From Patescibacteria group bacterium (GTDB taxonomy: Bacteria; Patescibacteriota; CPR2; UBA1875), in NCBI GenBank assembly GCA_041737595.1, contig JBGSRK010000009.1, forward strand, positions 43,233 to 107,232: 64,000 bases of DNA. The letters are read 5' to 3'. Made by a program: the position numbers and the translations under genes. Below the pieces are notes generated by a model, which was not told the origin of the DNA, did not search any database, and worked only from the letters and a program-made list of their open reading frames with translations. This document shows positions 2,275-41,085 of this stretch, piece by piece. The stretch's first letter is position 1; the number at the start of each line of letters is the position of its first letter.

Positions 2275-2883
2275 TCAATAATACTTTATAATAGTTTCGA
2301 TAACTCGGTCTAAACTTTTTTCAGAAATCATAATTTTATTTTTTTCTAAGGTTATTCTATTTTTATAAACGTCTGTCCAAGGAATATGAATAAATAAAAA
2401 GGGTATAGGGTTTTCACTTTCTGATATTTTTTTGCTCAATAAATATATTAAAGTATTGCAAATAAACCCTTCAGAATTATTTGAAAGCTCTGCTCTTATA
2501 CCAAATTTTTCTAATTCTTTTACTAGTTGGGGAATTTTCCCCGAAGTATAATAAAATTCTTTATCCCCCTTAATAATTGGAACCCCTGAAAATTGCCTGC
2601 CTTCAGAGTCCATATATTTACTATTTTTAACATTTCTTCCTCGTGTTTCAAATCTAATAGAAGGGACTCTAGATGCAAGGCCAAAAGATATAACAATATC
2701 AGGTTTGTTTTTTTTAATAAGATCAGATGCAACTTTTACGGCATCATTATAGGAACAAGGTAATACTTTACCAATAATAATACTCCCTGCTATTTCCTTC
2801 CCATTAAGTCGGTTAATTAGATCTTGTGTAGGGTTATATTTATAATCCCCAAATGGGTAAAAACCCGTTAAAAGTACTTTTAT
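2275..2883 (-). CDS. pcp: Pyroglutamyl-peptidase I (pyrrolidone-carboxylate peptidase) with non-ATG start (ATA 2883..2881 or ATT 2886..2884)
   Basis: The open frame from the TAA at 2889..2887 reads IIKVLLTGFYPFGDYKYNPTQDLINRLNGKEIAG...SEGFICNTLIYLL...FIHIPW, i.e. MKVLVTGFEPFG-like N-terminus, catalytic Cys in GFICN and His in FIHIP. There is no ATG/GTG/TTG before the first conserved residues. GGAG lies 7 nt upstream of the ATA. Confidence 0.65.
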   Translation of the reverse strand: MKVLLTGFYPFGDYKYNPTQDLINRLNGKEIAGSIIIGKVLPCSYNDAVKVASDLIKKNKPDIVISFGLASRVPSIRFETRGRNVKNSKYMDSEGRQFSGVPIIKGDKEFYYTSGKIPQLVKELEKFGIRAELSNNSEGFICNTLIYLLSKKISESENPIPFLFIHIPWTDVYKNRITLEKNKIMISEKSLDRVIETIIKYY

Positions 2884-2904
2884 AATTTATCTCCAATACA
2901 AATA

Positions 2905-4014
2905 TTAAAAATTAAGAATGCTCTCAGGGGTTTCTCCACCTTGGCTTTTTATTTTTATCCCAGATTCTTTAACTATTGTTCCACAAACCTTTACCTTAAA
3001 TTTATATTTTTCGGCTATTTCTTTTATTTTTTTATCTTCTGGCGCGATAATAAGCATACCTTGCCCCATATTCCAAGTTTGATAAGCCTCCTTATCAGAT
3101 ACTTCTCCCATCTTTTGCATCTCTAACATTAGATCACATGGAGCAAAAAGATTTGGTAAATCTGCTCCTAGCCCTGATGGTCTTAAAATCCTGCCAAGTT
3201 TTCCTGGCACCCCTCCGCCTGTTACATGAACGACTCCATGGATTTCGGTTTTTGGCTCTTTTGAAAAACCACCAGTAAGTTCACAAATAAATTTTGAATA
3301 TATTTTAGAAGGCTCAAGTATTTTTTCTGCCAAATCTTCTTTTTTATGCCATTCATTTCCATAAGCATTTGATAATATCTTTCTGGCTAAAGAAAGTCCA
3401 TTTGATCTGAAACCACTTTCTGAAAGAGCAATAACCTTGTCCCCCTCTTTTATTTCATGGCCAGTAAACATACGATCCTTTCTGGCAAACCAAACTAGAC
3501 CAGCCCCCCAATTATAATTAAAATCACCATAGCCAGAAACTCTTGAACCAAGTTCTGCAAGTTCTCCATTAATAACTGCAACATTTGCTTCTTTTGCAGC
3601 TGCAACATAACCGACGGCTAAATCTTTAAGAAAATTTTTAAATTCAACCCCATTTTTTGAAAGACAATTTACGTCAAGGATTGAACCAATTAATACAGGT
3701 TCACCACCTCTCACTACTGCATCATCACAAACCATCGCAAAAAGATCATATGCAATTGTGTCATGTTTTCCGATTCTCTCACCTATTTCCATTTTTGTCC
3801 CAACACCATCAAAGCCAAGACACATTAATGAACCTTTTGGGAGTTCGCTTACATCAACTACTCTTACTCCGCTAAAATCGTCAAATGGGCTTATTACTTC
3901 ACCAATTTCACCTTTCCGGTTTTCCCAAGTCAATTTAGCAGCTTGAAATAATACTTTTGAAGCATCATCGCCTAATTCAATATCAACACCGGCATCTTTA
4001 TAAGAAATTCCCAT
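2905..4014 (-). CDS. purM: Phosphoribosylformylglycinamidine cyclo-ligase (AIR synthetase)
   Basis: MGISYKDAGVDIELGDDASK... has the typical PurM N-terminus, and AIR synthase-related N and C domains are recognisable. Confidence 0.9.
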   Translation of the reverse strand: MGISYKDAGVDIELGDDASKVLFQAAKLTWENRKGEIGEVISPFDDFSGVRVVDVSELPKGSLMCLGFDGVGTKMEIGERIGKHDTIAYDLFAMVCDDAVVRGGEPVLIGSILDVNCLSKNGVEFKNFLKDLAVGYVAAAKEANVAVINGELAELGSRVSGYGDFNYNWGAGLVWFARKDRMFTGHEIKEGDKVIALSESGFRSNGLSLARKILSNAYGNEWHKKEDLAEKILEPSKIYSKFICELTGGFSKEPKTEIHGVVHVTGGGVPGKLGRILRPSGLGADLPNLFAPCDLMLEMQKMGEVSDKEAYQTWNMGQGMLIIAPEDKKIKEIAEKYKFKVKVCGTIVKESGIKIKSQGGETPESILNF

Positions 4015-4015
4015 T

Positions 4016-4831
4016 TTAATCCTTTTGTTTAAAATAATTTACTGCGTTTTCAAAAATCATAAGAGCGGGTTCATAAATTTCACTTATTGCTATTTTTCTT
4101 CTTCTCGCTTGCTCTCTTTTTTCATAATAATCAGGATGAGAAAGAAATGAAATTGATCTTTCAGGGTGAGGCATCATTCCAAGAATATGGCCTGTTTCGT
4201 CACAAATACCAGCCACATCTTCTAATGCCCCGTTTGGGTTAAATGGAAACTCACCTTCTGCTAAGGTGCTATCTTCTTTCACATACCTAAATACGACTTG
4301 ATCTGAGTCATTCATTTTACTCATCATTTTTTCATCGGCATAAAAATTACCCTCACCATGTGCAATTGGAATATTCATTTCTTTTATACCTTTTGTAAAA
4401 ACACAAATATTTGATTCAACCCTTATCTTAACCCAACGGCATTCAAACCTAGCCTTCTGATTATGGAGAAGGGCAACCTGTTTTTCTCCATACCCACCAT
4501 TGGCTGCAGGAAGTAACCCTAAATTAACTAGAATTTGGAAACCATTGCATATTCCAATTATCAGATTACCTCTCTTAATAAAATCTTTAATCTCTGTAAA
4601 TAGGTTATTTTTTATTTTATTCGCAAAAGCTTTTCCAGAACCAGTATCATCACCATAAGAGAAACCACCCGGGAAAACAAGAATCTGAGCACTTTTTAAC
4701 TTTGATTTATCTTCTGTTAAATCATTTATATGAACAATTTCTACATCTGCACCAACCTTATTAAATGCAAAAGCAGTCTCCTCGTCACAATTTATCCCAT
4801 ATCCGGTGATTACAATTACTTTTGGTTTCAT
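4016..4831 (-). CDS. purQ: FGAM synthase glutaminase subunit (class I GATase)
   Basis: MKPKVIVITGYGINCDEETAFAF...GICNGFQIL...HPER. It sits between purL and purM. Confidence 0.9.
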   Translation of the reverse strand: MKPKVIVITGYGINCDEETAFAFNKVGADVEIVHINDLTEDKSKLKSAQILVFPGGFSYGDDTGSGKAFANKIKNNLFTEIKDFIKRGNLIIGICNGFQILVNLGLLPAANGGYGEKQVALLHNQKARFECRWVKIRVESNICVFTKGIKEMNIPIAHGEGNFYADEKMMSKMNDSDQVVFRYVKEDSTLAEGEFPFNPNGALEDVAGICDETGHILGMMPHPERSISFLSHPDYYEKREQARRRKIAISEIYEPALMIFENAVNYFKQKD

Positions 4832-7768
4832 TTAATAGTCCTTTAATGTTTTATGATAATTATTTTGAAGATCATTTATTAATAAATTAATTATTTTTTC
4901 CCCATTACTATTTATTATAAATCGGTTATTATCTGAAACCTCGCCAATAAATGTAGCGTCCACTGAAAACAATTTTTCAAATTCTTCTTTATTTTCCTTT
5001 GCTATACTTACTAAAAATCTACTCTGTGTTTCAGAAAATAAATATTGATCCTTTTTTATTGTTTTTTCATCAGTATTTATATCTATTTTTACCCCTAAAT
5101 TACTAGATATCGTACTTTTTGCAAGAGCTACCCCAATACCACCTCTCTCAATACTAATCGACGAAGCTAATAGCCCCCTTTTTATAGCAATGGTAACTTT
5201 TTGGTATCTTTCTTTTGCAACTTTGGCATCAACTTTTGGAGAAGTATTCCCAATCGCGCCGAGTAATTTATAATATTCACTTCCACCTAATTCATCCTTT
5301 GTTTCTCCAATAACATATATTAAATCACCAGGAGTTTTAAAAGCTATATCTATAGTTTCAGAAACATCATCTATAACCCCTATTGAAGATATTAACAGAG
5401 TTGGCGGGACTGATATTTTTATTTTATTATCTGAATCATCTTCATACCCAACAAAATCATTAAACATACTGTCTTTCCCGGAAATAAATGGTGTTTCAAA
5501 GGCAACTGAATAATCATAACAAGCCTTAACAGCTTCTTTTAGTTGACCTAATCTTTCTGGCTCATTTGAACTACACCAACAGAAATTATCTAAAAGAGCT
5601 AATTTATTAATATCACCACCGGCAGAAATTGCATTTCTTATAGCAGTATCAATTGTACAAGCAGCCATGTGGTAAGTGTCTATTTCTGAAAGATTTGGGT
5701 ATAAGGCTTGTGAAAGTACTACTCCTTTTTTTGAATCAAGCCTTGGTCTTGTTATTGTAGTTGTCGAATTCACTCTACCTTTACCTTGAAGTGGTTTTAA
5801 AACCGAACCTCCTTGTACTTCATGATCATATTGGGTAGAGATAAATTCAAAAGAAGATATATTTAATGTCGAGAGTATATCACAAATTATTTTATCTAGA
5901 TCTGTTGGGAATTTGTCTGGTTCTGGATTTATTTTTTTTTGATATGAAGATGTGAGAACTTTATCAGGGAGACCATCATGAAGAAAGTCCATACTAATAT
6001 CCATAATTACATTATTATTGAATTTAACAATACATTTCCCGTTATTTTTAAATTCTCCTATAATTGTTGCTTCTACTCCTCTTTTTTTCATTAATATATC
6101 GAAAGAATTCCATTTTTCTTTTGGAACTGAAAGAGTCATTCTTTCTTGAGATTCAGAAATCCAAATTTCCCAAGGTTTAAGACCAGGATACTTTAATGGA
6201 ACCTTTTCTAAATCAACAACACACCCACCACATTCTTTTGCCATTTCAGCTACCGAACAAGAAATCCCACCTGCCCCGTTATCTGTAATACTTGTATATA
6301 AATCTAAATCTCTTGCTTCTTTTACAATTGCATCAGAAAGCTTTTTTTGTGTTATTGGATCTCCAATTTGGACTGCAGTTGCAGGACTCCCAGAATCCAT
6401 TGCTTCAGATGAAAAAGTAGCACCATGGATACCATCTGCCCCAACCTTGCCGCCAATCATTACAATATAATCACCAGACTGTGCTTGTTTTTTTGTACTA
6501 TCTTTCCTATTTATTGTCCGAGGGATTAACCCAACCGTACCAACAAAAACTAGTGGCTTTCCTCGATATTTTTCATCAAAGTAAATAAATCCCTGAGGAC
6601 TAGGTATTCCAGAACAATTTCCACCGACATTAACCCCTGAAATTACACCTTCCATTATTTTCCTTGGGCTAAGCATTTTTTGAGTTTTATTTGACCCTTT
6701 ATAAAGTTTTCTTTCGTCTCTTGGATCAGCAAAACAAAATCCATAACGATTAATAACTGGTTTTGCTCCCATACCAAACCCAATTGTGTCACGATTAACT
6801 CCGACTATCCCAGTAATTGCTCCTCCGAAAGGATCAAGAGCAGAAGGGGAATTATGTGTCTCAACCTTATCTGTAATTAAATATTCATCGTCAAATATAA
6901 TCCCACCAGAATTATCAACAAAAACTGAAACACAAATATCATTCTTCCCTTTTTTCTTTCTAATTTCCTGGGTAGCTTTTTTAATGTAATCTTTGTAAAG
7001 CCCCCCTTTAATTTCATCTAAAGAAGCAGCAAAAATAGTATGTTTACAATGTTCTGACCAGGTTTGTGCAAGAGATTCAATTTCAATATCGGTTGGTATG
7101 CGTTTTTCTTTATTAAAATATTTTTTAATTTCTTTTAGTGATTCAAGATCAAGTGCTAAGGGGCCCCTTCTTGAACCATCTTTGTTTAAAACACCCTCTT
7201 TTCCCAGTTTTGTAAGTTCTTCATCTGAAAGATCTAAAGAAACTAAATCAGTAGTTTGACCTAATTCAAGTTTGACTAAAGGAGTTGAGATACCCATACC
7301 ATTGTTTTTGATATAATCATTCTTAGATAAAAGTTGGGCTCTTTGAATAAGTGGGTTATAAAGTGATTCAGAAATTTCTTTTTGTTTATCAATTTCACCA
7401 CTTATAAGATATAAAAATGATGAATATACAGACTCCTCATTCTTAAAATCACAATTTATTGATTCCGAAATTTCCTCTTTAATAGTAGTTGCAATATTAT
7501 CAGTTACTCCCGGTAAAAAACCTATTTCAATTGCAAAATCAAAGTTTTCTATACTAGTTGGCTCATCAATTTTTATCTCTTCATTTACTGAATTAAGTAA
7601 TAGATCGGTGATTTTTTTAAGCTCATTTTGGCTAAAATCTTTTGCTATAGTATAAACATTAATAATTTTTACATTAGATATTTTGAATCCAAGAGATTTT
7701 AAATCAGCAAGTAGTGTTTCAGACCTGCCATCATGAATTTTTGATTTTATTTCTACCCTGTGTCCCAT
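4832..7768 (-). CDS. purL: FGAM synthase II with fused N-terminal PurS-like domain (PurS-PurL fusion)
   Basis: 978 aa. The first ~80 aa (MGHRVEIKSKIHDGRSETLLADLKSLGF...) are PurS-like. The rest is PurL, with duplicated AIRS-like domains, GG.TG..G, and DNGAGG motifs. Confidence 0.85.
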   Translation of the reverse strand: MGHRVEIKSKIHDGRSETLLADLKSLGFKISNVKIINVYTIAKDFSQNELKKITDLLLNSVNEEIKIDEPTSIENFDFAIEIGFLPGVTDNIATTIKEEISESINCDFKNEESVYSSFLYLISGEIDKQKEISESLYNPLIQRAQLLSKNDYIKNNGMGISTPLVKLELGQTTDLVSLDLSDEELTKLGKEGVLNKDGSRRGPLALDLESLKEIKKYFNKEKRIPTDIEIESLAQTWSEHCKHTIFAASLDEIKGGLYKDYIKKATQEIRKKKGKNDICVSVFVDNSGGIIFDDEYLITDKVETHNSPSALDPFGGAITGIVGVNRDTIGFGMGAKPVINRYGFCFADPRDERKLYKGSNKTQKMLSPRKIMEGVISGVNVGGNCSGIPSPQGFIYFDEKYRGKPLVFVGTVGLIPRTINRKDSTKKQAQSGDYIVMIGGKVGADGIHGATFSSEAMDSGSPATAVQIGDPITQKKLSDAIVKEARDLDLYTSITDNGAGGISCSVAEMAKECGGCVVDLEKVPLKYPGLKPWEIWISESQERMTLSVPKEKWNSFDILMKKRGVEATIIGEFKNNGKCIVKFNNNVIMDISMDFLHDGLPDKVLTSSYQKKINPEPDKFPTDLDKIICDILSTLNISSFEFISTQYDHEVQGGSVLKPLQGKGRVNSTTTITRPRLDSKKGVVLSQALYPNLSEIDTYHMAACTIDTAIRNAISAGGDINKLALLDNFCWCSSNEPERLGQLKEAVKACYDYSVAFETPFISGKDSMFNDFVGYEDDSDNKIKISVPPTLLISSIGVIDDVSETIDIAFKTPGDLIYVIGETKDELGGSEYYKLLGAIGNTSPKVDAKVAKERYQKVTIAIKRGLLASSISIERGGIGVALAKSTISSNLGVKIDINTDEKTIKKDQYLFSETQSRFLVSIAKENKEEFEKLFSVDATFIGEVSDNNRFIINSNGEKIINLLINDLQNNYHKTLKDY

Positions 7769-7935
7769 CTATATTTATTTAATCACAGTTTTTATTTATT
7801 AAGAAGCTTTTTAAGGTTATTGGATATTTCGACCATTTACAGCTTATGGTTCTGATGATAGAATGTCTCCACGTGAATATAGGATATGGATCCGTACTCA
7901 GGTTCCTAAAAACCGAAAGGCAAGGTGAATATCTA

Positions 7936-8847
7936 ATGAACGAAGATAGGACTGGCTTTCAACCTGATCATAGGGGGAAAGTCAGAGATATCTACGATCT
8001 TGGGGACAGACTTCTCCTAATCGCTACCGATCGAGCTTCGTCGTTTGATGTTGTTCTCCCTGGCACGATTCCTGGGCGCGGGGTGATTCTCACCAAGATC
8101 TCGAAGTTCTGGCTTGAGGGTCCACTCGCAGATATCGTCCCTAACCACCTTCTGAGCACCAATATCCTCGATCTTCCAGCTGACTTCCTGATGCAGTTCA
8201 CTTCTGATGAAGTGGACTATCTCGAAGGTAGAATCATGATCGCGAAAAAGGCCAAGGTTTTCCCTGTCGAATGTATTGTCAGGGGATATTTGGCCGGCTC
8301 AGGTCTCAAGGAGTACAACAATCAAGGGACCGTTTGCGGGATCGTTCTTCCTACTGGTTTGGTCAATTCCGACAAACTGCCGGAACCGATCTTTACTCCG
8401 TCAACCAAGGCCGAGGCAGGCTCCCACGACGAAAACATCACTTTTGGGCAGATGTGTCGCATTGTCGGCGAGTCAGTCGCAGTAGAACTCAAGCGGCTCT
8501 CTCTCGAACTCTACAACAGAGCGGCCGAACACGCTCTGGTACGAGGTGTCATCATTGCCGATACCAAGTTCGAGTTCGGAATCATCAACGACGAGATCAT
8601 GTTGATCGACGAAGTTCTGACCCCTGACTCATCTCGGTTCTGGCCTCTCGATGAGTACGAGCCAGGTCGGGAGCAGAACAGCTTCGACAAGCAGATCCTG
8701 AGGAACTACCTTACGGGTCTCAAGAAGCAAGGTCTGTGGAATGGAGAAGCCCCTGGGCCTGTCATTTCTCAAGAGATCGTCGAACAGACTATCGCACGCT
8801 ATCGCGAAGTCTACGGGAGAATCACCGGTCATACCTATATGGTCTGA
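7936..8847 (+). CDS. purC: SAICAR synthetase, long (actinobacterial-type) form; high-GC island gene
   Basis: GKVRDIYDLGDRLLLIATDRASSFDVVLPGTIPGRGVILTKISKFW ... IIADTKFEFG ... LTPDSSRFWP. GC ~55% versus ~30% in the flanks. The real start ATG is at 7936 (the ORF-track start at 7846 is an upstream extension). Confidence 0.85.
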   Translation: MNEDRTGFQPDHRGKVRDIYDLGDRLLLIATDRASSFDVVLPGTIPGRGVILTKISKFWLEGPLADIVPNHLLSTNILDLPADFLMQFTSDEVDYLEGRIMIAKKAKVFPVECIVRGYLAGSGLKEYNNQGTVCGIVLPTGLVNSDKLPEPIFTPSTKAEAGSHDENITFGQMCRIVGESVAVELKRLSLELYNRAAEHALVRGVIIADTKFEFGIINDEIMLIDEVLTPDSSRFWPLDEYEPGREQNSFDKQILRNYLTGLKKQGLWNGEAPGPVISQEIVEQTIARYREVYGRITGHTYMV

Positions 8848-8880
8848 CACCAACCCCTCAGAAGAAAGTGCTCCATGAAG

Positions 8881-8912
8881 GACCTCTCGCGCGAGGGGTT
8901 CTTTATTATTTA
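8881..8912 (+). terminator. Rho-independent terminator after purC
   Basis: GC hairpin CCTCTCGCGCGAGGGG followed by TTCTTTATTATTTATTT. Confidence 0.5.
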
Positions 8913-8913
8913 T

Positions 8914-9654
8914 TTATCTAACTATATCCCAATCAGATTCTTTATCATTTTTTAAAATAACTCTGTAAAAATAACTTTTCATTCTTTTAACGAGTTGTGA
9001 AAAAAATCTCCCTTGAAAACGACGATAACTAGTTTCTAGAATTAATTTGGGACAATATTTAATTTTTCCTATTTCTTTTACTCTTAAAGATAAATCAACA
9101 TCTTCAAGTGCGCTAATTTCGGGGTTAAACCCCCTTGACTTTAAATAGGCTTTTTTTGTAATCGCAAAGTTTAAACCCCGAAAAGCATACCCCCGATTAA
9201 ATATTCGATGGATATAATCGAAAAATATCATGGCAGACCGGAAAGAAAAATTAAATATATCGCTCTTATCAAAAAATCTATATGTCCCAACTGTTCCTAC
9301 ATATCTGTTATCATTTATATTATTATAAATTTTTATTAGCCAATCTGACGGTAGAACTGTATCTGCATCAGTGCTCGCAATAATTTCACTTTTGACCTTA
9401 GTAAAACCTTTTTTCCGAGCAGAACCAATCCCTTGTTTTTTCTCTTTTACAATCTTTAGGGTTGGTAATTTTTTTTTGTATTTATTTATTATTTCTAAAG
9501 TTTTATCAGTTGAATTATTATCAACTAGAATTAGTTCATATGATACCTCTTTAGAAAGATTTAATATCGAATTCAAGAGATGTATTATAGATTTCTCTTC
9601 ATTATAGAATGGTATAACAATAGATATTTTTGGACTATTTTGTAAATTCATCTT
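8914..9654 (-). CDS. Family 2 glycosyltransferase
   Basis: [11 protein letters not shown]...[12 protein letters not shown]...DADTV (DXD) are GT2 hallmarks. The start is probably MKMNLQ or MNLQ rather than the longest ORF. Confidence 0.75.
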
Positions 9655-11431
9655 CATTGCCTGCTTGATGCCCCCAAAGTTTTGCATATAAACCATCTAA
9701 TTTAATCAACTCTTCATGGGTACCATCTTGAACAATTTTCCCCTTATCAAGAACTAGTATTCTATCAAGATGTTTAATAGTTGAAAGCCTATGGGCAATA
9801 ACAAGCGCTGTTTTATCTTTCATAAGTTCCCACAAACCTTCTTGAATATATTTTTCTAATTCAGAATCATGTGAACTTGTAGCTTCGTCTAAAACAAGTA
9901 TTGGGGCTTTTTTTAATAGGGCCCTTGCAATTGCTACTCTTTGTCTTTGCCCCCCACTTAGTTTAATTCAACGTTCTCCTACTAATGTATTATAGCCTTC
10001 AGGTAGTAAATTAATAAATTCATCAGCATGTGCAATTTTTGCAGCTTTTAAAATATCTTTTTTTGATGCATTTTCATCTCCGTATGAAATATTCTCCAAA
10101 AGAGAACGATGGAAAAGTAGTGGTTCTTGCGGAACGTAAGAAATTGCTTCTCTGAGAGAAATTTGGGTAACTTCTTTAATTGGTTGGTTATCAATAGTTA
10201 TTTCCCCCGATTCAGAATCTATAAATCTTAAAATCATCTTTGTTATAGTTGTCTTTCCACCACCACTTGGTCCGACAAGCCCAACTTTTTCTTTTTTCTT
10301 AATATCTAAACTAAAATTGTTTAAAAAACACTCTCCATCTTTTCCATTATCACAATATTTAAAATTAACATCCGAAAAAGAAATATTTCCATCTATAACT
10401 TTTAAATCTTTCGCACAATCAATATCTTTAATTGATGGCGGATCTACAAATAGTTGAGTAAATTCAGCAGCTTCACTTATAGAAGATTCTGTATTACGAT
10501 AAATTTTACTAATATTCCAAAATATTCTCGTAATTTGAGCATAATAAGAGAAAACAACTACAATCGCGCCAGCATTTAAATTAAGGGACTGAGCAAAAAA
10601 TATTGCCGCAAAAAGCCCAATTGCGTTTGTAAAAACATAAAATGGAGAAACAATTGAATCATAACGTAAATTTTGAAAATCTGCAGTTTGTTTGAATTTG
10701 TTAGTAAATTTATCTACATGTTTACCAAAAATTTTATATTCTTGATTTTCTTTTGCAAAAGACTTAACTGCAAGAATATTTGTGAGTGAATCTGATAATC
10801 TCCCAACCATTTTACTGCTTGCATCATGTCTTTCTGTAACTAATTTTACTCTTTTTTTAATGAGAGGAATGGCGATGAAAACCAATATAGACAAACAAAA
10901 TAATAATATAGTTGGTATCCAAGGTGAATATCTCCATAAGACAAAAAAGACAAAAAAGACCGGAAGGATTTCTGAAACAATATTAAAACTCAAAGTATCA
11001 GTCACGGTTTCAAAATTTCTTGAATAGGAAGCAGCCTTTTTTGTAAGTGTTCCAACAAAATTATTCGAATAAAAATCATAATCTCTTTCAGCTAATAATG
11101 AAAAAGATTTTTTTGATAAGTTATTAATCCCTTTAGTTTCAATTTTAATAATAAAATGTATTCCAACCCGCCAAAATATTTCCCCGATTAACCAACCTCC
11201 GGCAAAAAGGAAAATATAACCTAAAGAATCAGAAAGTAAAATTTGCTGTTTTTCATTAAAAATATCAATCAGCTTTGCAATTATTAAAGGTGGGACATAA
11301 AAAACAAAAATATTACCAAAACCAGGTGAAAAAAGAGCTATTAGTGTTTGAAATGGAAAACTACGTAATTGAACCCAATAATCACTAATAACCTGGTTGA
11401 CTGCTTTTTTTGTAATTAACTTTTCTGCCAT
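9635..11431 (-). pseudogene. ABCB-type exporter (TMD+NBD) interrupted by a single in-frame TGA (9968..9970) at the conserved Gly preceding the LSGGQ signature
   Basis: Upstream ORF ends ...GYNTLVGER-TGA. The same frame continues [38 protein letters not shown]...[10 protein letters not shown]...; the canonical sequence is VGERG..LSGGQ. Walker A GPSGGGKTT is present. The standard-code ORF track splits it into 487-aa and 66-aa pieces. Confidence 0.6.
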
Positions 11432-11561
11432 TTTATACCTTTATTTTTTATATAAACTAAATTATAACAACAAACAGGAACGTAGCAAAGATAAACAAAA
11501 AAGATCTACTTTTAGGTTTTGTTAAATATCGAGATATTTTGTAAATAATCTTTTAGTTTAG

Positions 11562-13568
11562 TTATTGTTTCATTAAAGCAAATTGGCTGTTATAAAGAGA
11601 TGCATAAAAGCCTTTTTTTGCTAATAATTCTTTGTGAGTGCCTTGTTCAACAACATCACCATTATTCATAACTAAAATAAGATCTGCGTCGCGTATAGTT
11701 GAAAGACGGTGTGCTATAACAAAACTTGTTTTATTCTTCATTAAATTATCCATAGCTTTTTGAATAAGTACTTCTGTTCTAGTATCAACCGAGCTTGTGG
11801 CTTCATCAAGTATGAGCATGGGTGTTTTAGCAAGCATTGCTCTTGCAATCGTTAAGAGTTGTTTTTCACCTTGAGATATATTATTTGCTTCTTCATTTAA
11901 TTTCATATCATAACCATCAGGCAAAGAACAAACAAAATGATCAACATGAGCTTCTTTAGCTGTTTTAATTATTTCTCTATCAGAAGCATTAGTATTGCCA
12001 TAGGTAATATTATCTCGAATAGTACCATTAAAAAGCCAAGTGTCCTGGAGTACCATCCCAAAAAGTTTTCTAACATCAGAACGTCTCATATCTCTGATAT
12101 CAACACCATCAATTTTTATAGAACCACTATTTATTTCATAGAATCGCATCAAAAGATTTACTAAAGTTGTTTTCCCGGCTCCAGTTGGACCAACTATTGC
12201 AATTCTGTGCCCCGGTTCGATTTTCACAGTAAGATTTTTAATTATTTTTGTATCTGGTTTATAGCCAAATACTACATTATTAAATTCAATTTGACCCTTA
12301 ATATTTGAAATAGTTACCGGTTTTTTTGTTTCTGAAGATTGTTCTTCTTCTGCTAAAAACTCAAAAACCCTTTCAGCTGATGCTGCAGTTGATTGTAAAA
12401 CATTTGCGATATTTGCTGTTTGAGCAATTGGTTGGTTAAACTGTTGAACATATTGAATAAATGCTTGGATATCTCCGATTTGTATTTTGCCATTTATTGC
12501 TTGCCAACCTCCCACAACAGCAACCCCAACATAACCTAAATTTCCAACAAATGTCATCACCGGGAACATTAAACCAGATAAAAACTGTGATTTCCAAGCA
12601 CTATGATATAACTTATCATTTATCTTATTAAACTTATCAACAGATGACTTTTCACCATTAAAAACACGCATTACCATATGACCTGCATACATCTCTTCAA
12701 TATGGCCATTAAGATCGCTAAGTTCTTTTTGTTGTTTTGTAAATTGAACTTGAGATTTTTTCATAATCAACATAATTAGAATAAAACTTAAAGGTAAAAT
12801 TAAAAGAGTAACTAAGGTTAAAAGCCAGCTGATTGAAAGCATCATTACGATAATTCCAATAATCATTACAAAAGAAGTAACAATTTGAGATAAACTTTGA
12901 TTTAAAGTCTGGCTAACAGTATCTACATCATTTGTAACTCGGCTAAGAACTTCCCCATAAGTGATTTTATCGAAATAGCTAAGTGGTAATCGATTAATTT
13001 TTTCAGAAATATCTTTTCGAAACTGATAAGTAACTTTTTGAGTTACTCCCGTCATAATCCAACCCTGTATATAACTAAAAATTGCACTAAAAATATATAA
13101 AGCAAAAAGAAATAGAATAATATTTCTAGTACTCGTAAAATCAAATTTTGGGCGACTAGTTAAATCAAGAGATTTAATTTTATCAAGCTTATCCTGAGGG
13201 ATTTGCTCCAACATTTTAGGAGGCATTTTCTGGATTAAATCAGCTACAGTTGTTCCAGCGGGAAGTTTCGTCCCAGCTGGAATTTTTTCAATAACCTGAT
13301 CATATGCTTTAATATTTATATAATCATCAACTATTTGGTTTGTGACATTCCCTAAAATCTTTGGGCTAACTATTGCAAATATTGTGCTCGCAATCGCAAA
13401 AATAAATACAAACATTATCTTAACCCAGTAAGGCTTAAGATAAACTGCAAGGCTTTTTAGCGTACCCATAAAATCTTTTGCTTTTTCTTGTGCATTACCA
13501 CCTAACATCGGAGGACCAAAATGTCTGCCTGGACGCGCTTGTGAAGTAGTTATTTTTTTTTCTTCCAT
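11562..13568 (-). CDS. Heterodimeric ABC exporter subunit (canonical Walker A/B and H-loop, degenerate signature motif)
   Basis: GPTGAGKTT; ILDEATSSVD; AHRLST. The signature is ISQGEKQ instead of LSGGQ. There is a 6-TM N-terminal domain with a long extracellular loop. Confidence 0.85.
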   Translation of the reverse strand: MEEKKITTSQARPGRHFGPPMLGGNAQEKAKDFMGTLKSLAVYLKPYWVKIMFVFIFAIASTIFAIVSPKILGNVTNQIVDDYINIKAYDQVIEKIPAGTKLPAGTTVADLIQKMPPKMLEQIPQDKLDKIKSLDLTSRPKFDFTSTRNIILFLFALYIFSAIFSYIQGWIMTGVTQKVTYQFRKDISEKINRLPLSYFDKITYGEVLSRVTNDVDTVSQTLNQSLSQIVTSFVMIIGIIVMMLSISWLLTLVTLLILPLSFILIMLIMKKSQVQFTKQQKELSDLNGHIEEMYAGHMVMRVFNGEKSSVDKFNKINDKLYHSAWKSQFLSGLMFPVMTFVGNLGYVGVAVVGGWQAINGKIQIGDIQAFIQYVQQFNQPIAQTANIANVLQSTAASAERVFEFLAEEEQSSETKKPVTISNIKGQIEFNNVVFGYKPDTKIIKNLTVKIEPGHRIAIVGPTGAGKTTLVNLLMRFYEINSGSIKIDGVDIRDMRRSDVRKLFGMVLQDTWLFNGTIRDNITYGNTNASDREIIKTAKEAHVDHFVCSLPDGYDMKLNEEANNISQGEKQLLTIARAMLAKTPMLILDEATSSVDTRTEVLIQKAMDNLMKNKTSFVIAHRLSTIRDADLILVMNNGDVVEQGTHKELLAKKGFYASLYNSQFALMKQ

Positions 13569-15343
13569 TATTTAACTCCCTCACTAATAACTTTAGTTGG
13601 ATCTATTTCAATAGATTTCAATTCTTCATCAGAGAGTTGTGAATAAGCAATTTCTTTATAAACTTTATTATTTTTAAGAAGTTCTTTATGTTTACCTTGA
13701 CCGACAATTTTACCTTCATCTAAAACAATTATTTTATCTGCATTTGAAATTGTACTAATTCTTTGGCCAACAATAAGAACCGTTTTATTTTTAATTTCCT
13801 CTGAAAGAGCTTCTCTTAGTAGGGAATCAGTTTTAAAATCAAGCGCTGAAAATGAATCATCAAATATATATATCTTTGGATCAACTGTAAGTGCTCTTGC
13901 AATTGATAACCTTTGCTTTTGTCCTCCTGAAACATTTGAACCACCTTGTGAAATTTTATTATCGTATTTATTTCCTAAGTTATTCACAAAATCACTTGCT
14001 TGTGCAATTTCTACAGATTTTTCTATTTTTGAATCTTTAGCATTTTTATTCCCATATTTAATATTACTTTTAATGGTTCCCGAAAAAAGTACACCCTTTT
14101 GTGGAACATAACCAATTTGTTTATATAAATCTTCTAGATTCATATCTCGAATATCCACACCATCAATTAATATCTGGCCAGATGAAACATCATAAAATCT
14201 TGGGATTAGATTTATAAGAGTTGATTTTCCGCTACCAGTACTACCTATAAATGCAGTTGTTTGGCCTATCTCAGCAGTAAAATTAATCCCCATAATAACT
14301 GGTAAATCCGCGCCAGGATAACTAAATGTAACATCTTTAAATTCGATTCGTCCCTTACTTTTTTTATCTATCTTAATAGGTTTTTTAGGATTTTTTATTG
14401 TCGATTCTGTTTCAATTACTTCTGATATTCTGTTTGCAGAAACTGAGGCACGTGGGATCATAATAAACACAATTGATATCATTAAAAATGACATAATCAC
14501 TTGTATTGCATATTGCATGAAAGCAAGCATATTACCTATTTCTAAATTACCGGCATCAATTAAATGAGCTCCAAACCAAACAATAGCAACTATTGCAAGA
14601 TTCATAATAAGCATCATGGCTGGCTGTAAAATAACCATTAATCTATTAACAAATAAATTTAAATTTGTTAGATCTACATTTGCTTTTTCAAATTTTTCTT
14701 CTTCTTTAGCTTCATTATTAAATGCACGAACCACTCTTAGCCCAGTCAAATTTTCTCGAGTTACTAAGTTTAATCTATCAACCATTTTTTGAAGAAGCTT
14801 AAATTTAGGGATACCAATTGAAAAAAGAACAATAATCATTACCATTAATGATGTTGCGGCAACAGCAATAATCCAGCTCATTGATGGGGCCATATTAATA
14901 GCTTTTTGTAGTGCGCCTACAGCCATAAATGGTGCCATTAATACCATCCTAAATATCATGATCATAGCCATTTGAATCTGTTGAACATCATTTGTAGAGC
15001 GTGTTATTAAAGATGCAGTTGAAAATTTATTAAATTCATTTATAGAAAAACCCTCTACTTTTGTAAAAACCTTTTTTCTGATATCACGAGAAGCACCTGT
15101 TGCAATCTTTGAGGCAAGATAACCTACAATGACAGCACAAATACCTCCACCTAAAGTCACAAGTAGCATTAACCCACCATTTTGATAAATTGCATTTATA
15201 TCTTTTAAGAGGATGCCTTTATTAATAATATTTGCGATATAGTCCGGAAGTTTAAGATTTGCCATTACTTGGAGGTAAGTAAAAAAAACTAAAACTACCA
15301 TTAGCCATGTGTAGGGTTTAAAGAATTTTAGTAATTTTTTCAT
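13568..15343 (-). CDS. Heterodimeric ABC exporter subunit (canonical signature, degenerate Walker B and H-loop)
   Basis: GSTGSGKST; VSGGQKQRLSIARAL. Walker B is IYIFDDSFSALD (catalytic E to D) and the H-loop is VGQRIST (H to Q). It overlaps its neighbours at start and stop (ATGA). Confidence 0.85.
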   Translation of the reverse strand: MKKLLKFFKPYTWLMVVLVFFTYLQVMANLKLPDYIANIINKGILLKDINAIYQNGGLMLLVTLGGGICAVIVGYLASKIATGASRDIRKKVFTKVEGFSINEFNKFSTASLITRSTNDVQQIQMAMIMIFRMVLMAPFMAVGALQKAINMAPSMSWIIAVAATSLMVMIIVLFSIGIPKFKLLQKMVDRLNLVTRENLTGLRVVRAFNNEAKEEEKFEKANVDLTNLNLFVNRLMVILQPAMMLIMNLAIVAIVWFGAHLIDAGNLEIGNMLAFMQYAIQVIMSFLMISIVFIMIPRASVSANRISEVIETESTIKNPKKPIKIDKKSKGRIEFKDVTFSYPGADLPVIMGINFTAEIGQTTAFIGSTGSGKSTLINLIPRFYDVSSGQILIDGVDIRDMNLEDLYKQIGYVPQKGVLFSGTIKSNIKYGNKNAKDSKIEKSVEIAQASDFVNNLGNKYDNKISQGGSNVSGGQKQRLSIARALTVDPKIYIFDDSFSALDFKTDSLLREALSEEIKNKTVLIVGQRISTISNADKIIVLDEGKIVGQGKHKELLKNNKVYKEIAYSQLSDEELKSIEIDPTKVISEGVK

Positions 15344-23835: not shown

Positions 23836-24669
23836 ATGTATATTTTTTTTAGATTTTTCACTAGAGGTATGTCCCATTTCTTCGAATCTATAAAGCTTGC
23901 ATTTTCTTGTAATAAGTCCTATAAACAGTCTATCAAACCATTAATCGAAAAAATTTATAACTGTATGTTTTTTAATCCAAAGAAGAAAAATGAATGGAAG
24001 TTTTGGGATTATAAAATGTCAAAAAAAGTTAGTGAAATTATTAAGGGAGGGGAATTTAAGGAAATAGAAGATCCGGTAGAAAAAAAGTTTTATTTTTGGT
24101 TATTAGAAGAATTGTCTAATGATATTAACTTTAATAAATTAAACACCCTTGAGTTAGGTGCAGGTTCTGGAGCTTTTTCCTATTATTTACAGAAGCGCTT
24201 CAGATGCTCGGTTACACTTTTAGATAATAGTAAAAATGCCATTAAATACGCAAAGTTACTAAACTATAGAGCAAAAATATTAGAAAAAGATGCTCGGCAG
24301 TCATTTGGTATCAGTAAATATAATTTTATTCATACAACTGGGTTACTTGAACACCTTAATGACAAAGATATAAAACAAATAATCAAAAACATTAAGCGAG
24401 CCTTAAAACCTAATGGTATAGCCTTCTTAGCAGTCCCAAATTATTTTAGCCCAGCATTAATAACACTATGGAAAATTCACGGCAAGGGTTCAGAAAGGTA
24501 TATAACAATAAGAGATCTTAAAAAATATATAAAATCTTATGGATTTAACTTGATTGCAGCTCGTCATTCGTATTTTAGTTTTGAAAAGATAACAAGATAT
24601 ATCTGGTTGGAGAAAATAATAGGTAGACTCGGTCTAGGCTTTTTAAATTATATTATTGTACAAAAATGA
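23836..24669 (+). CDS. Class I SAM-dependent methyltransferase
   Basis: LELGAGSGAFSYYL (motif I) ... LLDNS ... LKPNGIAFLAVP. Confidence 0.7.
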   Translation: MYIFFRFFTRGMSHFFESIKLAFSCNKSYKQSIKPLIEKIYNCMFFNPKKKNEWKFWDYKMSKKVSEIIKGGEFKEIEDPVEKKFYFWLLEELSNDINFNKLNTLELGAGSGAFSYYLQKRFRCSVTLLDNSKNAIKYAKLLNYRAKILEKDARQSFGISKYNFIHTTGLLEHLNDKDIKQIIKNIKRALKPNGIAFLAVPNYFSPALITLWKIHGKGSERYITIRDLKKYIKSYGFNLIAARHSYFSFEKITRYIWLEKIIGRLGLGFLNYIIVQK

Positions 24670-28500: not shown

Positions 28501-29136
28501 ATGATTATTTTAAATAACATATTAACATTATTTATTACAGATGGACTTGCCAGCCTTAGTCGGGTTTTTGTCGGTTTTTTTATTGCTATTATTCTAGGGG
28601 TAGGGCTAGGTACTATTACTTTTTATATAAAAGGGTATAGAAATATACTAAAATTAATTGCAGAATTTCTTAAGTCAATTCCACCCATAGCATGGATTCC
28701 TATTACTATTATGTTTTTAGGGCTTGGTTCGCAATCTGCGATATTTATAGTCTTTTTAGGTGGTTTCTTCCCTATTTTTCTTAATACAGCTTACGGCGTA
28801 ACTTCAATGCCAAAAAAATATACTGAAATATCAAAAAATTTCGGAGTAAATGGAGTATATTTTTATCATAAAATTCTCTTAGGCTATCTCATGCCATATA
28901 TATTAACAGGGCTAAAAATAGGGATAGGGATTGCCTGGACAAGTGTAATTGCCTCTGAAATGATAGGAGTTCAAAGTGGTCTTGGCTATTATATTCAGAT
29001 AAACAGACTTTTACTTAATACCCAGGAGGTAGTTACTGGCATGGTAATGATAGGCGTAATTGGTTACGGAATGACAAAGTTTGTTGAGAAAATTGAGAAG
29101 AAGTACTTAGTTTGGCAAGAGGCAAAGAATGCTTAG
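28501..29136 (+). CDS. ABC transporter permease (binding-protein-dependent inner membrane component, SsuC/TauC-like)
   Basis: EAA-like loop region and 6 TM helices. It is adjacent to the ATPase. Confidence 0.8.
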   Translation: MIILNNILTLFITDGLASLSRVFVGFFIAIILGVGLGTITFYIKGYRNILKLIAEFLKSIPPIAWIPITIMFLGLGSQSAIFIVFLGGFFPIFLNTAYGVTSMPKKYTEISKNFGVNGVYFYHKILLGYLMPYILTGLKIGIGIAWTSVIASEMIGVQSGLGYYIQINRLLLNTQEVVTGMVMIGVIGYGMTKFVEKIEKKYLVWQEAKNA

Positions 29137-29815
29137 ATTGGATAATGTTATTTTTAATAGAGGCGGCAAAAGAATACTTGAAAATATCAACATTCATATC
29201 AAAAAATCTGAAGTTGTGAGCATACTTGGACCATCGGGGATAGGGAAAACTACTCTTGCAAAGATTATGTCAGGTTTACTGAATCCTATTTCTGGTTCAG
29301 TATTTTTAGAGGGGAATATTCTGAAAACCCCTGTACCAACACTAGTATTATCTCACCAAGAATCAGATTTGTTTGATTGGTTGACGGTTGAGGAAAATGT
29401 AGGGTTAGTAGGTGGCAAGAAAAACGCAGAAAAATGGCTTAATATATTTGGTCTGGTTGAATACCGTAATAACTATCCAAAAACCCTCTCAGGTGGTATG
29501 AAAAAAAAAGTTTCACTAGCTAGAGCCGCAAGTGTAAATCCTTCTGTAATAATTTTAGACGAGCCGTTCTCTTCACTGGATGAAAAACAAAAAATAAAGT
29601 ATTATAAAGAATTTAAAAATTTAGCAAATCAAGAAGGAGTTGCAATTATTGTTGTGACTCACGACATAAACGAAGCATATAATTTTTCAAACAGAATTAT
29701 TTTTCTAGGTGGCAACCCTGCGACTATAATAGATGAAAAAATTCCGACCGGGGAAGAAAGTTCAAGTGAAAAAAGAGATTTAGTACTAAAAAATCTTGAG
29801 TCGATAGGAAAATGA
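29129..29815 (+). CDS. ABC transporter ATP-binding protein (SsuB/TauB-like)
   Basis: GPSGIGKTT; LSGGMKKKVSLARA; ILDEPFSSLD; THD H-loop. Confidence 0.85.
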   Translation: MLRLDNVIFNRGGKRILENINIHIKKSEVVSILGPSGIGKTTLAKIMSGLLNPISGSVFLEGNILKTPVPTLVLSHQESDLFDWLTVEENVGLVGGKKNAEKWLNIFGLVEYRNNYPKTLSGGMKKKVSLARAASVNPSVIILDEPFSSLDEKQKIKYYKEFKNLANQEGVAIIVVTHDINEAYNFSNRIIFLGGNPATIIDEKIPTGEESSSEKRDLVLKNLESIGK

Positions 29816-29818
29816 AAG

Positions 29819-31159
29819 ATGAAATATTTAAAAACCGTACTCCCGATGGAAATAAATGAAATCCCAAAGGCAGCTTCGCTTTTAATATCAAGAGCAAGAG
29901 ATTTTGAAGTCTTACTATTTTCTGAGGCAGGGAGCTGGCCTATTAAATATATTTGGGAAAAGATGGCTGCAAAAGATAATAATTATAATAAAGTATTTTT
30001 TTCATCAAAAATTACTTCATTTTCAAAAAGTCCACTAGCTAATCAATTGTGTGGACTGCTAACAATTACTGAAAGAAAATCAAAGCTTTCTCAAAAGAAA
30101 AAAAATAAGATTGCTACACTTTTAAATTCATTTAATGATGAATTTAAAGGTAAAATAACAAATCAGTTACTTAATCAAAATGTAGAAAAAATTATACATT
30201 ATATTTCTTCAATGGGGCTTATAATCCCTAGTGAAGAAGGGTTGATAAAACAAAATAAATGTTTTGATAATAATATATCCACACTTAGTAAAAATTTTAT
30301 TGATTTTAAAAAAAAATCAGTATCATACATTCTTTCTGATCTCCCAAATATTAAACATGAAGTTAGGCCTATACTGCAGATAATTTTATCAGATACTAAA
30401 TTTGGTAAAGCAATAAAGTCACGAAAAGTTTATGTATTTGATGAGATAATAAGTCGTGGGAGGACTATCAATTCTATAGAAGTGATTATAAATTCATTTT
30501 CATCCACAACGGATTGGGTTATGGGAGTTGTCTATTGCCCAAAGTTTTATGTTGGAAGTAAAATTGATTTTGTTTATAGCGATAAAAAGGCATTACCTAC
30601 GTCAAATCGACCAGATATGATTGGAGAAGTGACTTATGAGACTGTATTTGCTTTTGAAACTAAATCACTTACGAATATTTTGCCTAATACAAGAGTAAAA
30701 AATGAAGACGATATAAGTATTTATAACAGTGAAATTGCAAAGTTTAATAGTCGATATTTCCCAAAGCTTAAAATGTTAAATAAGACATCTTTTCGAGCTC
30801 TTTTAAACTTATACTTTATGGCTGACGATAAGGATATATTTGAAAAGTGCCTTCATCTTAATTTAGTTGAATCAGTAAGCCTTTTAGAAGAAATCGCTTT
30901 TTATATAACAATGCCATTTCCACTTTCAGATATTATAAAACGAAATAAGTTTAAAAAAGAATCACGGCAAGTATTAAAAAAATTAGAATGCTCAATAACT
31001 AATTCTGATTTTTCTGATAACCTTAACAAGCTAAAAATAAAGTACTATGCTATTAGAAGTATAATTATTAAGAGTGAAATAGCTTCCTGGATAAAAACAA
31101 ATACTAAAGTAATAAGGGAGTTAGACTTAGTACTGGAGGAGGTTTTTAATGGAAAATAG
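29819..31159 (+). CDS. Hypothetical 446-aa protein with a central PRPP-binding (type I PRTase)-like motif
   Basis: KVYVFDEIISRGRTINS resembles hhhhD(D/E)hh(T/S)(T/S)GxT. The N- and C-terminal parts are unrecognised. It sits inside the ABC/NPP cluster. Confidence 0.35.
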   Translation: MKYLKTVLPMEINEIPKAASLLISRARDFEVLLFSEAGSWPIKYIWEKMAAKDNNYNKVFFSSKITSFSKSPLANQLCGLLTITERKSKLSQKKKNKIATLLNSFNDEFKGKITNQLLNQNVEKIIHYISSMGLIIPSEEGLIKQNKCFDNNISTLSKNFIDFKKKSVSYILSDLPNIKHEVRPILQIILSDTKFGKAIKSRKVYVFDEIISRGRTINSIEVIINSFSSTTDWVMGVVYCPKFYVGSKIDFVYSDKKALPTSNRPDMIGEVTYETVFAFETKSLTNILPNTRVKNEDDISIYNSEIAKFNSRYFPKLKMLNKTSFRALLNLYFMADDKDIFEKCLHLNLVESVSLLEEIAFYITMPFPLSDIIKRNKFKKESRQVLKKLECSITNSDFSDNLNKLKIKYYAIRSIIIKSEIASWIKTNTKVIRELDLVLEEVFNGK

Positions 31160-35481: not shown

Positions 35482-35752
35482 GGCGATTATCTTCTCCTTT
35501 TTCAAAGGGCTGGACACAACGAGAATGTCGCTATTTTACTACCAAATAAGGGAAAGGTAAACGTGCTTTATATCCTAAATGTTCAAAAAACTTTATTTTT
35601 TTAAATCGATTTTAGTAAAAATAAAAAAATAGATAAAAAACATGAATTATTTACAGTAAACGATTGTTATGTTAATATACCCGCACGTGTAAGAAAGACA
35701 AACGTCAAGATCTACAGTTTCCTTCAATAGAGAGGTAAGGTGAAAAGGCTCT

Positions 35753-38319: not shown

Positions 38320-38388
38320 ATTTGACCTTCTATCTACCTTTTATCGCATTATTAGATTAACAAATTAAGATTATTTTGTCATTAATTT

Positions 38389-38415: not shown

Positions 38416-38431
38416 AAATATACGTTCCATT

Positions 38432-38596: not shown

Positions 38597-39583
38597 CTAG
38601 CTCTTCAGTAGATTAATGATTAGTTTAATTAGAATATCTTTTTCTTTTGGGTCACTTGAGGCTGTAAGAATCGCGAGTGCAACAAGCGTATTATCATTTA
38701 TTTTCCGCTCACCATCTTTGCGATACAAATATTTATTCTTTTCAAGAAAATAGACAAACAAAATTGATGCGATACGTTTATTACCATCGAAAAAAGCATG
38801 GTCTTTTGTGACTAAATAAAGCAGGTTGGCTGCCTTACTTTCTATAGAATTGTATAAATCGATTCCATCAAAGGTTTGATATATGCTCCCAATTACTGAT
38901 TTAAATTTATGCTCAATTTCTGAACCAAAAAATGAACCAGCTTCATTTGTTGTAAGTAAATTTTGTTTTAAACTCCCGACAATATTAATAGCCGATTCAT
39001 AGGTCAACTCAAACGACGGGATAATGCCTTTTGTCACTCTTAGTTTCTTTGAGTCATACCTGCCAAGAATTGAGATTGAGCTGGAATAATATTCCAAAAC
39101 AGAAAAAAGTTCTTGTTCCTGACCTAAAAGATCTTCGGTTTTGGCACTTTTGCTCAGAAAATTTACAGTGTCCTTTAATTCTTGTAACTTATTTTGACTT
39201 TCTACAAGTAATTTTTGATTTACAACATGCCCCTGAAGTAAATATTGTTTTAGCACATTGTTAGCCCAGATTCTAAATTGCGTTCCCTGAATTGAATTAA
39301 CCCGATAACCTACAGAAATAGTGACGTCTAGGCTATAATAATCAACCTGATATACCTTACCATCAGCGGCAGTTGTTGCATATTTTGCAACAACTGATTT
39401 TCTTTCTAGTTCTTTTTCATTAAATATATTCTTTAGGTGACGTGAAATAACCGATTTATCGCGGTGAAAAAGTTCTGCTATTTGATCAAGTGAAAGCCAC
39501 AGGGTTTCTTTTTCTAACTTAACCTCAAACTGAGTTTGGCCTGTTTTATCTTTATAAATAACTAACTTTTGTGTTTTTACCAT
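38597..39583 (-). CDS. RhuM-like N-terminal domain fused to a Fic/Doc domain
   Basis: N-terminus KLVIYKDKTGQTQFEVKLEKETLWLSLDQIAELF (RhuM-like). C-terminal HAFFDGNKRIA matches the Fic/Doc motif HxFx(D/N)GNKR. Confidence 0.7.
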   Translation of the reverse strand: MVKTQKLVIYKDKTGQTQFEVKLEKETLWLSLDQIAELFHRDKSVISRHLKNIFNEKELERKSVVAKYATTAADGKVYQVDYYSLDVTISVGYRVNSIQGTQFRIWANNVLKQYLLQGHVVNQKLLVESQNKLQELKDTVNFLSKSAKTEDLLGQEQELFSVLEYYSSSISILGRYDSKKLRVTKGIIPSFELTYESAINIVGSLKQNLLTTNEAGSFFGSEIEHKFKSVIGSIYQTFDGIDLYNSIESKAANLLYLVTKDHAFFDGNKRIASILFVYFLEKNKYLYRKDGERKINDNTLVALAILTASSDPKEKDILIKLIINLLKS

Positions 39584-39630
39584 ACCTTAATCATAAGTAT
39601 TATAAATATAAAAACAAGTATACAAAGCTT

Positions 39631-41085
39631 ATGTTTTTTTATAGTATTAAAGTACTTATGTTACACCCATCCCGAATTTTTGTTTTGTATCTTTCTCTGT
39701 TCTTGGTTTCTGTCTGTTATTTTATATTCCATCCAATATTTATCGATAAGATATATTTAATTCCTATCTTAATAATACTTTTGGCGTTTTGGAGAATTAA
39801 ATTTATTAGATACGTATATTTGTTATTATTTGTTATTTTACTTGCCTGTATTCGAACTTTTCCTTATGCCCAATCTCCCGATCTAAATATTTACAAAGAT
39901 AAATTAATTAGTGGATATATCTCATCTGAGCCATACATAGTAGATTCAAAACAAAAATTTACTCTTACTCTTACAGGGTCCCACCCTGTCAAACCTAAAA
40001 TTGAAATCGCCACCAATCAATCTCCTAAATATAAATTTGGTGATGAAATTAAAATCGACGGTAAATTATCGAACGAGTATCTAAATTCATCCCACAAGTC
40101 CAAGAATATTTTTGCCAGAATGTCTTACCCAGATATTAAAGTTACTGGGGAATCGAAACTTCTCTACATCGGAGTAGAGAAGTATCTGCTTAAAATAAAA
40201 AACTTTTTTAAAGACAGAATATCTATGATTTTACCGGAACCACATTCCGGGCTCGTAAATGGCATACTTTTAGGTGAACGTTCAAATATTTCTGATAGTC
40301 TTAAAACTTCACTTTCAAGAACTGGGACAACTCATATTATTGCTCTTTCAGGTTTTAATATTACAATTGTCGCTATTTTTTTAGGATTTTTAACCTCTGG
40401 TTTATCAAGAAAATCTTCGGTCATTATAAGTATTATTGGGATATTTTGTTTTGTGTGTGCAACTGGATTTTCCTCTTCTGCAATCCGGGCCGGTATAATG
40501 GGAACATTACTTGTTCTTTCTAAAATTTTTGGTAGAAAATCTGATGGGATTATAGCAATTATTTTTGCATGCGTAGTAATGACTTTTTTAAATCCAATGA
40601 TACTTTTATATGATATTGGGTTCCAACTTTCATTTTCTGCTGCGTGTGGAATTATCTTTTTTTACCCTAAAATTGAACATTATTTTAATATTTTTGGAAA
40701 AACTATGTCCCAAAACATCGCAGCGACTATATCGGCTATTTTATTTACCTGGCCAATAACTAGTTATTATTTTGAAGTATTTTCTTTGGTTGCACTTTTT
40801 ACAAATATTTTAATACTTCCATTTATAGAATGGCTGATGTTTTTTGGATTTATATCAGTTTTTATTTCGTATATTTCTAAGGGATTAACGGATATTTTTA
40901 TATATATTTGTTGGGGGATGTCTTCATATATATTTAAAGTAATTGAAACATTTTCAAAAATTAATTGGGCAGTTTTGGATTTAAAAATAAATTCATGGAT
41001 ATTTTTAATTGGGTACTTTTTAGTCGTATTTGAAATAATATATATCTTGGGGAATATAAAATATGCAAAAACAAAAAATATTTGA
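39631..41085 (+). CDS. comEC: ComEC/Rec2 competence protein, N-terminal (DUF4131) plus competence domain; ends in an A6 run
   Basis: SLSRTGTTHIIALSGFNITIV (competence domain) and many TM helices. The ORF-track start at 39571 overlaps the divergent Fic start, so a later ATG is preferred. Confidence 0.7.
   Translation: MFFYSIKVLMLHPSRIFVLYLSLFLVSVCYFIFHPIFIDKIYLIPILIILLAFWRIKFIRYVYLLLFVILLACIRTFPYAQSPDLNIYKDKLISGYISSEPYIVDSKQKFTLTLTGSHPVKPKIEIATNQSPKYKFGDEIKIDGKLSNEYLNSSHKSKNIFARMSYPDIKVTGESKLLYIGVEKYLLKIKNFFKDRISMILPEPHSGLVNGILLGERSNISDSLKTSLSRTGTTHIIALSGFNITIVAIFLGFLTSGLSRKSSVIISIIGIFCFVCATGFSSSAIRAGIMGTLLVLSKIFGRKSDGIIAIIFACVVMTFLNPMILLYDIGFQLSFSAACGIIFFYPKIEHYFNIFGKTMSQNIAATISAILFTWPITSYYFEVFSLVALFTNILILPFIEWLMFFGFISVFISYISKGLTDIFIYICWGMSSYIFKVIETFSKINWAVLDLKINSWIFLIGYFLVVFEIIYILGNIKYAKTKNI

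Follow-up and report, generated by a model that had tools for sequence, protein, structure and literature searches.

The stretch of DNA analyzed in this study (hereafter the window; 64,000 nucleotides), from an uncultured Patescibacteria bacterium with a tiny genome, has a GC content of ~31% and carries ~55 long ORFs that are intact under genetic code 11. One gene for an ABCB-type half-transporter is interrupted: on the minus strand, its frame runs from an ATG at 11431 to a TAG at 9637..9635, with a TGA as the sole interruption (Table 1). The GC content of this gene is ~30%, and its composition and codon usage are those of the host.

Table 1. Features of the window discussed in the text, with positions counted from its first nucleotide.
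Feature	Position	Strand	Remarks
Whole ABCB-type half-transporter gene	9635..11431	minus	598 codons including the TGA; TMD + NBD
In-frame TGA, codon 488 of 598	9970..9968	minus	Column of the invariant Gly, GERG-x-KLSGGQ
Truncated ORF under code 11, 487 aa	9971..11431	minus	Six-helix TMD, Walker A, and Q-loop kept
Orphaned 3' part, 110 codons + TAG	9635..9967	minus	86-87% identical to CPR2 orthologues
CAT, His521 for Leu (D-loop SSLD to SSHD)	9869..9871	minus	Leu in 119/119 homologues
TTA, Leu525 for Ser	9857..9859	minus	Ser in 97% of 119 homologues, never Leu
Family-2 glycosyltransferase gene downstream of the exporter	8914..9657	minus	PF00535, 2e-30
Pyroglutamyl peptidase gene ending in TGA	2275..2886		Pfam domain end
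Methyltransferase gene ending in TGA	23836..24669		Pfam domain end
ABC ATPase gene ending in TGA, complete 228 aa	29129..29815		Pfam domain end
ComEC-like protein gene ending in TGA	39571..41085		Pfam profile matched to position 266 of 270

Domains and motifs of the interrupted exporter

The read-through product matches PF00664 (ABC_membrane; 1.4e-16) with residues 39-302 over profile positions 10-272 of 274, and, only if the TGA is read through, PF00005 (ABC_tran; 2.7e-33) over profile positions 1-137 of 137. With the same read-through, GPSGGGKT, VPQEP, LSGGQ, ILVLDE, and AHRLS are all found in the exporter DNA. A sequence-only reading of this region had described a lone in-frame TGA at the invariant Gly of an ABC exporter, with translation continuing in frame across it. 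Both observations hold, the TGA being the only break in 598 codons and lying in a column occupied by Gly in 119/119 homologues, and the two Pfam profiles being covered over their full lengths.

The Gly replaced by TGA is located four residues ahead of the LSGGQ signature motif. The truncated ORF retains the Walker A motif GPSGGGKT (10273..10250, minus) and is without the signature motif, Walker B, D-loop, and H-loop. In the orphaned 3' part of the gene (minus strand), we identified LSGGQ at 9961..9947, Walker B ILVLDE at 9901..9884, and the H-loop residue His547 at 9793..9791. The uninterrupted frame for a whole NBD that characterizes ABCB-type exporters is therefore missing, as the product ends before LSGGQ, and the canonical D-loop (S-A/S-L-D) is altered, with SSHD in place of SSLD.

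Judged by its sequence, the product is a type I (ABCB-like) half-transporter. Sav1866, MsbA, Atm1-type exporters, and the halves of ABCB1 share the same architecture of a PF00664 TMD and a PF00005 NBD in ~600 aa, and the matches to PDB chains were 3e-75 for 2hyd (Sav1866), 1e-77 for MsbA, 2.5e-77 for the Atm1-type exporter, and ~1e-129 for the two halves of ABCB1 together. ABCB1 also shares the VGERG-x-LSGGQ...DEATSALD..ESE motifs, including the Gly at the TGA column. In contrast to type I exporters, the copy in the window is interrupted before LSGGQ and has His and Leu at two positions of the D-loop region.

Homologues of the exporter

Thousands of relatives were retrieved from 5.8 billion protein clusters, and the analysis used the 119 best full-length sequences. 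These 119 homologues are 594-641 aa in length and 59-73% identical to the exporter over 94-100% of the query; those with names are Patescibacteria, and the closest are CPR2 and Howlettbacteria (71-73%). A scan of GTDB species representatives, from which the source genome is absent, gave the same picture, with CPR2/Howlettbacteria nearest. A smaller alignment of 20 homologues likewise has Gly throughout the TGA column, which is encoded by GGC, GGT, GGG, or GGA across 35 related loci. This exporter subfamily (P0002-P0120) is unusually conserved across Patescibacteria classes, extremely so in its C-terminal third, and its final 110 residues include long invariant stretches; such sequence conservation hints at a substrate that is important, although uncharacterised. 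Gene order is not shared with the two CPR2 genomes compared.

Genomic neighborhood

The likely start of the downstream glycosyltransferase gene (ATG 9657 or 9651) overlaps the natural stop of the exporter by ~20 nt, so that any translational coupling between the two genes would be lost after the premature stop. The interrupted gene belongs to a tandem array of three ABCB-type exporter genes (9635-15343, minus). The other two encode products of 668 and 591 aa, share one base (13568) at their ends, and probably constitute a heterodimer pair. With only 30-36% identity to the interrupted gene over their ATPase-containing C-terminal parts, these two do not obviously substitute for it.

Three gene-sized islands with ~50% GC (7846-8847, 27149-28450, and 34075-37156) stand out from the ~31% GC of the contig and carry purC, hisS, and a purB-purE-purC block, respectively. 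The best homologues of the first purC (7846-8847) are ~60% identical and belong to Coriobacteriia/Actinomycetota and an archaeon, which suggests unameliorated horizontal acquisitions. This first island is not a scaffolding chimera, because both of its AT/GC junctions are inside a single contig of the Logan assembly (L041, 3.7 kb), which is 100% identical to window 5522..9228. It closes a de novo purine cluster (2905-8847) in which AT-rich purM, purQ, and a fused purS-purL (978 aa) precede the GC-rich purC; many Patescibacteria have been described as lacking de novo purine synthesis. Two functions are encoded twice in the window. SAICAR synthase (purC) genes are located at 7846-8847 and 36302-37156, both GC-rich and 22% identical to each other, and histidyl-tRNA synthetase genes at 27149-28450 and 32558-33844, one GC-rich and the other AT-rich. 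A tRNA-Asp gene (38432-38508) adjoins the third GC-rich island and is flanked by a 325-aa protein without a Pfam match on one side and a RhuM/Fic-domain protein on the other; the layout at 37342-39583 resembles that of an island integrated at a tRNA gene.

Genetic code of the window

Across the 64-kb window, stop-to-stop ORFs with 150 or more codons end in TAA in 33 cases, in TAG in 12, and in TGA in seven. TGA terminates at least four typical AT-rich genes whose Pfam domains are complete and end at or close to the stop (Table 1). Reading TGA as sense gave a long homologous extension to none of the other window ORFs with 150 or more codons, and the frequency of in-frame TGA is one in ~19,000 codons. 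A second candidate, the TGA at 29813 between 29129..29815 and 29819..31159, was rejected and is a true stop, because the two proteins are unrelated and the downstream one has its own ATG. Code 25 and code 4 were likewise rejected for the window, because TGA is the terminator of several complete genes and, read as sense, links no other gene; the standard code 11 is in use.

Five tRNA genes, for Asp, Met, Met, Arg(GCG), and Ser(CGA), were identified in the window. No tRNA(UCA) or tRNA-Sec is present among them, an Rfam scan of the window found nothing else, and no RF2 was identified among the 35 window proteins scanned. The 111 nt around and after the stop have a minimum free energy of -18.6 kcal/mol compared with a shuffle mean of -19.0 (z = 0.16), which provides no indication of an RNA structure after the stop. 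These results agree with the sequence-only reading, which had taken the other long genes to be intact under code 11 and had argued against genome-wide code 25; the search for a UGA-decoding tRNA that it had proposed yielded neither tRNA when run on the window.

In bacteria, known UGA=Gly decoding is confined to Gracilibacteria and Absconditabacteria, where it is accompanied by tRNA-Gly(UCA) and RF2 loss (PMC8629427). The interrupted exporter shows a likeness to code 25 in that its stop lies at an expected Gly in a low-GC member of the same phylum. In code-25 genomes, however, UGA is never a terminator and occurs in frame in many genes (PMC8629427), whereas in the window it is a terminator and occurs in frame once. 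Membership in the code-25 clades was rejected, as placement in Gracilibacteria/Absconditabacteria, judged from this one gene, fails with best homologues (72-73% identity) in CPR2/Howlettbacteria. A recent transfer of the gene from a code-25 bacterium of these clades, in which TGA=Gly would be legitimate, might account for a stop falling exactly on a Gly position, but TGA occupies only one of 34 Gly positions, GC content and codon usage match the host, and the closest homologues are again CPR2/Howlettbacteria, with placement inside CPR2 and without a code-25 sister already indicated. Such a donor is highly improbable.

Selenocysteine (UGA=Sec) was also rejected. Bacterial selenoprotein genes share with the exporter an in-frame UGA inside a conserved ORF, but the window gene is without a SECIS hairpin 3' of the UGA, no tRNA-Sec was identified in the window, and the relatives have Gly rather than Cys or Sec at this position. 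The in-frame TGA of the exporter is thus an isolated event that neither code 25 nor selenocysteine explains.

Functional read-through or local recoding, by which a leaky UGA-A (decoded by near-cognate tRNA-Trp) or a suppressor would allow some full-length exporter to be made, finds some encouragement in a frame that continues perfectly past the TGA and in a stop that consists of UGA and then A. UGA followed by A is a relatively weak termination context in model bacteria. The precedent of UGA=Gly elsewhere in the phylum (PMC8629427) also speaks for it. Against it are the single in-frame TGA in ~55 genes of which several end in TGA, the lack of a suppressor tRNA in the window and of structure downstream of the stop, and relatives that fall outside the code-25 clades; moreover, near-cognate decoding would place Trp in a column where Gly is invariant. 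Taken with the substitutions described below, this makes read-through improbable. The specific case that one UGA is usefully decoded in a CPR2-like bacterium with otherwise normal UGA stops, through a suppressor not yet recognised that inserts Gly or through leakage that inserts Trp, with an essential exporter thereby preserved, is more improbable still. If true, it would represent an isolated, possibly incipient reassignment outside the known code-25 clades and would be of wider interest.

Recovery of the stop codon in a second assembly

The 487-aa truncated product (P0001) is the only form on record among the protein clusters, and this exact product is recorded twice, in the NCBI contig and in a Logan contig of run SRR28170473. 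The latter (L001, 4.6 kb) is 100% identical to window 9217..13808, including the TGA. The source organism has been seen in one sequencing run only, and both assemblies probably derive from the same reads, so that the two assemblies are not independent samples; the presence of the TGA in both therefore rules out an artefact of assembly, though not a systematic one. No full-length allele above 73% identity was found among the 5.8 billion protein clusters, and JGI metagenome contigs had no match to a DNA pattern that left the mutated base open (N). Looked up as exact proteins, the truncated product and the neighboring ABC gene led only to the same single Logan contig and run, and the downstream glycosyltransferase had no record. 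No literature on the run accession was found.

A sequencing or consensus error would imply that the true codon is GGA and the gene intact, the T at 9970 originating from low coverage or from G>T oxidative damage. The occurrence of the organism in a single run fits this possibility, as do the short Logan contigs (3.7 and 4.6 kb), which suggest modest coverage or strain heterogeneity, the otherwise flawless ORF, and the seemingly indispensable family; G>T is also the classic artefact type of 8-oxoG. On the other hand, the same base was obtained by two different assemblers, and Logan contigs are built from repeatedly seen k-mers. An error would also leave two changes at otherwise fixed positions, L521H and S525L, unexplained unless three errors had occurred within 115 bp, which makes a single-error explanation awkward. 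We thus regard an error as rather unlikely.

Substitutions downstream of the stop

Two substitutions after the TGA, L521H and S525L, are private and radical and lie 33 and 37 codons past it (Table 1). The His521 codon CAT is one base from the CTT of relatives, and the Leu525 codon TTA is one base from their TCA; ABCB1 also has Leu at the column of His521. Across the 487 codons before the TGA, the conservative L399M is the only deviation at columns that are at least 95% conserved, while the last 111 codons contain three private deviations where conservation is at least 97%, two of them radical. The same count among the 119 homologues gave 79 with none, 33 with one, five with two, and two with three such deviations, mostly conservative ones (I>V, M>L, Y>F, and G>S). 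The count in the interrupted gene is matched by two of the 119 homologues and exceeded by none, and the contrast between the parts before and after the TGA is not significant (Fisher p = 0.12-0.19). The pattern of L521H and S525L is suggestive and would fit relaxed constraint on a 3' part that is no longer translated. A diversity-generating retroelement was rejected as the source of the clustered changes, as the ancestral bases are G, T, and C rather than A and the target is an NBD.

The same substitutions bear on the two explanations that keep the 3' part in use. Functional read-through is disfavored because a damaged D-loop would not be maintained; L521H and S525L argue that the 3' part is not under selection. 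In a split gene, the 3' 110 codons would be re-initiated, for example at the ATT at 9967, and the two pieces would reassemble into an active NBD. An SD-like AGGAG at 9979..9975, placed with suitable spacing 8 nt before the ATT codon that follows the TGA, invites this explanation, but it simply consists of the conserved Gly-Glu codons, and its likeness to a ribosome-binding site is most likely coincidental. The first canonical start appears only at TTG 9835, no homologue is split at the position of the TGA, and the D-loop substitutions again argue against selection on the fragment. A functional split gene is therefore hardly credible.

Origin of the in-frame TGA

The exporter gene has 277 single-base routes to a stop, including 10 from GGA to TGA, and GGA represents 29% of Gly codons in the AT-rich genes of the window, so that a stop falling on a Gly codon is unremarkable. 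The sequence-only reading had proposed a one-base GGA to TGA change; this is a reasonable inference given the share of GGA among Gly codons and its use at the neighboring Gly485, although a GGA ancestor is not directly shown because the nearest relatives use GGC or GGT. Its choice between a nonsense mutation, a sequencing error, and a rare local recoding is supported and can now be narrowed, with the TGA reproduced by a second assembler.

The TGA is probably a real and recent nonsense mutation, and the gene would accordingly be a young pseudogene or carry the majority loss-of-function allele of the sampled population. As expected of a nonsense pseudogene, the premature stop occurs where all homologues have a sense codon, and essential motifs are removed. 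The codon of Gly488 would have been hit by a point mutation, in the simplest case from GGA to TGA, which in the coding strand is a G-to-T transversion. Under the standard code, release factor 2 would end translation at codon 488, and the resulting 487-aa product, without LSGGQ, Walker B, D-loop, and H-loop, would be unable to form a catalytic ATPase dimer. From established knowledge of ABC ATPases, a product that ends before the signature motif would form no ATP sandwich dimer, and the exporter would thus be inactive. The untranslated 3' remnant might then have begun to gain changes never tolerated in the family, such as L521H and S525L. In this scheme, we infer the ancestral codon, the loss of function, and the acquisition of the substitutions after the stop. 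The direction of two of these three changes (G>T and C>T) would match the AT-ward bias expected in a genome of 31% GC.

Some observations weigh on the side of caution with respect to this nonsense mutation. Given how strongly the family is conserved across Patescibacteria, losing it is somewhat surprising, and L521H and S525L could predate the stop. The 3' part contains neither a frameshift nor a second stop, and the event would consequently be very young and hard to distinguish from a consensus error.

Young nonsense pseudogenes in genomes and MAGs share with the exporter gene a single premature stop, the loss of motifs, and first unconstrained changes downstream. Compared with them, nothing is distinctive here except for the unusual conservation of the affected family in the phylum; the finding is accurate but ordinary. 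For annotation, the exporter is best marked as a pseudogene or as a gene with an internal stop rather than as a 487-aa protein and a small orphan ORF, and altered UGA decoding should not be deduced from this MAG. A real mutation would mean that the lineage has only just lost an exporter retained elsewhere across Patescibacteria classes at 60-73% identity, a minor contribution to the picture of ongoing gene loss in these reduced genomes.
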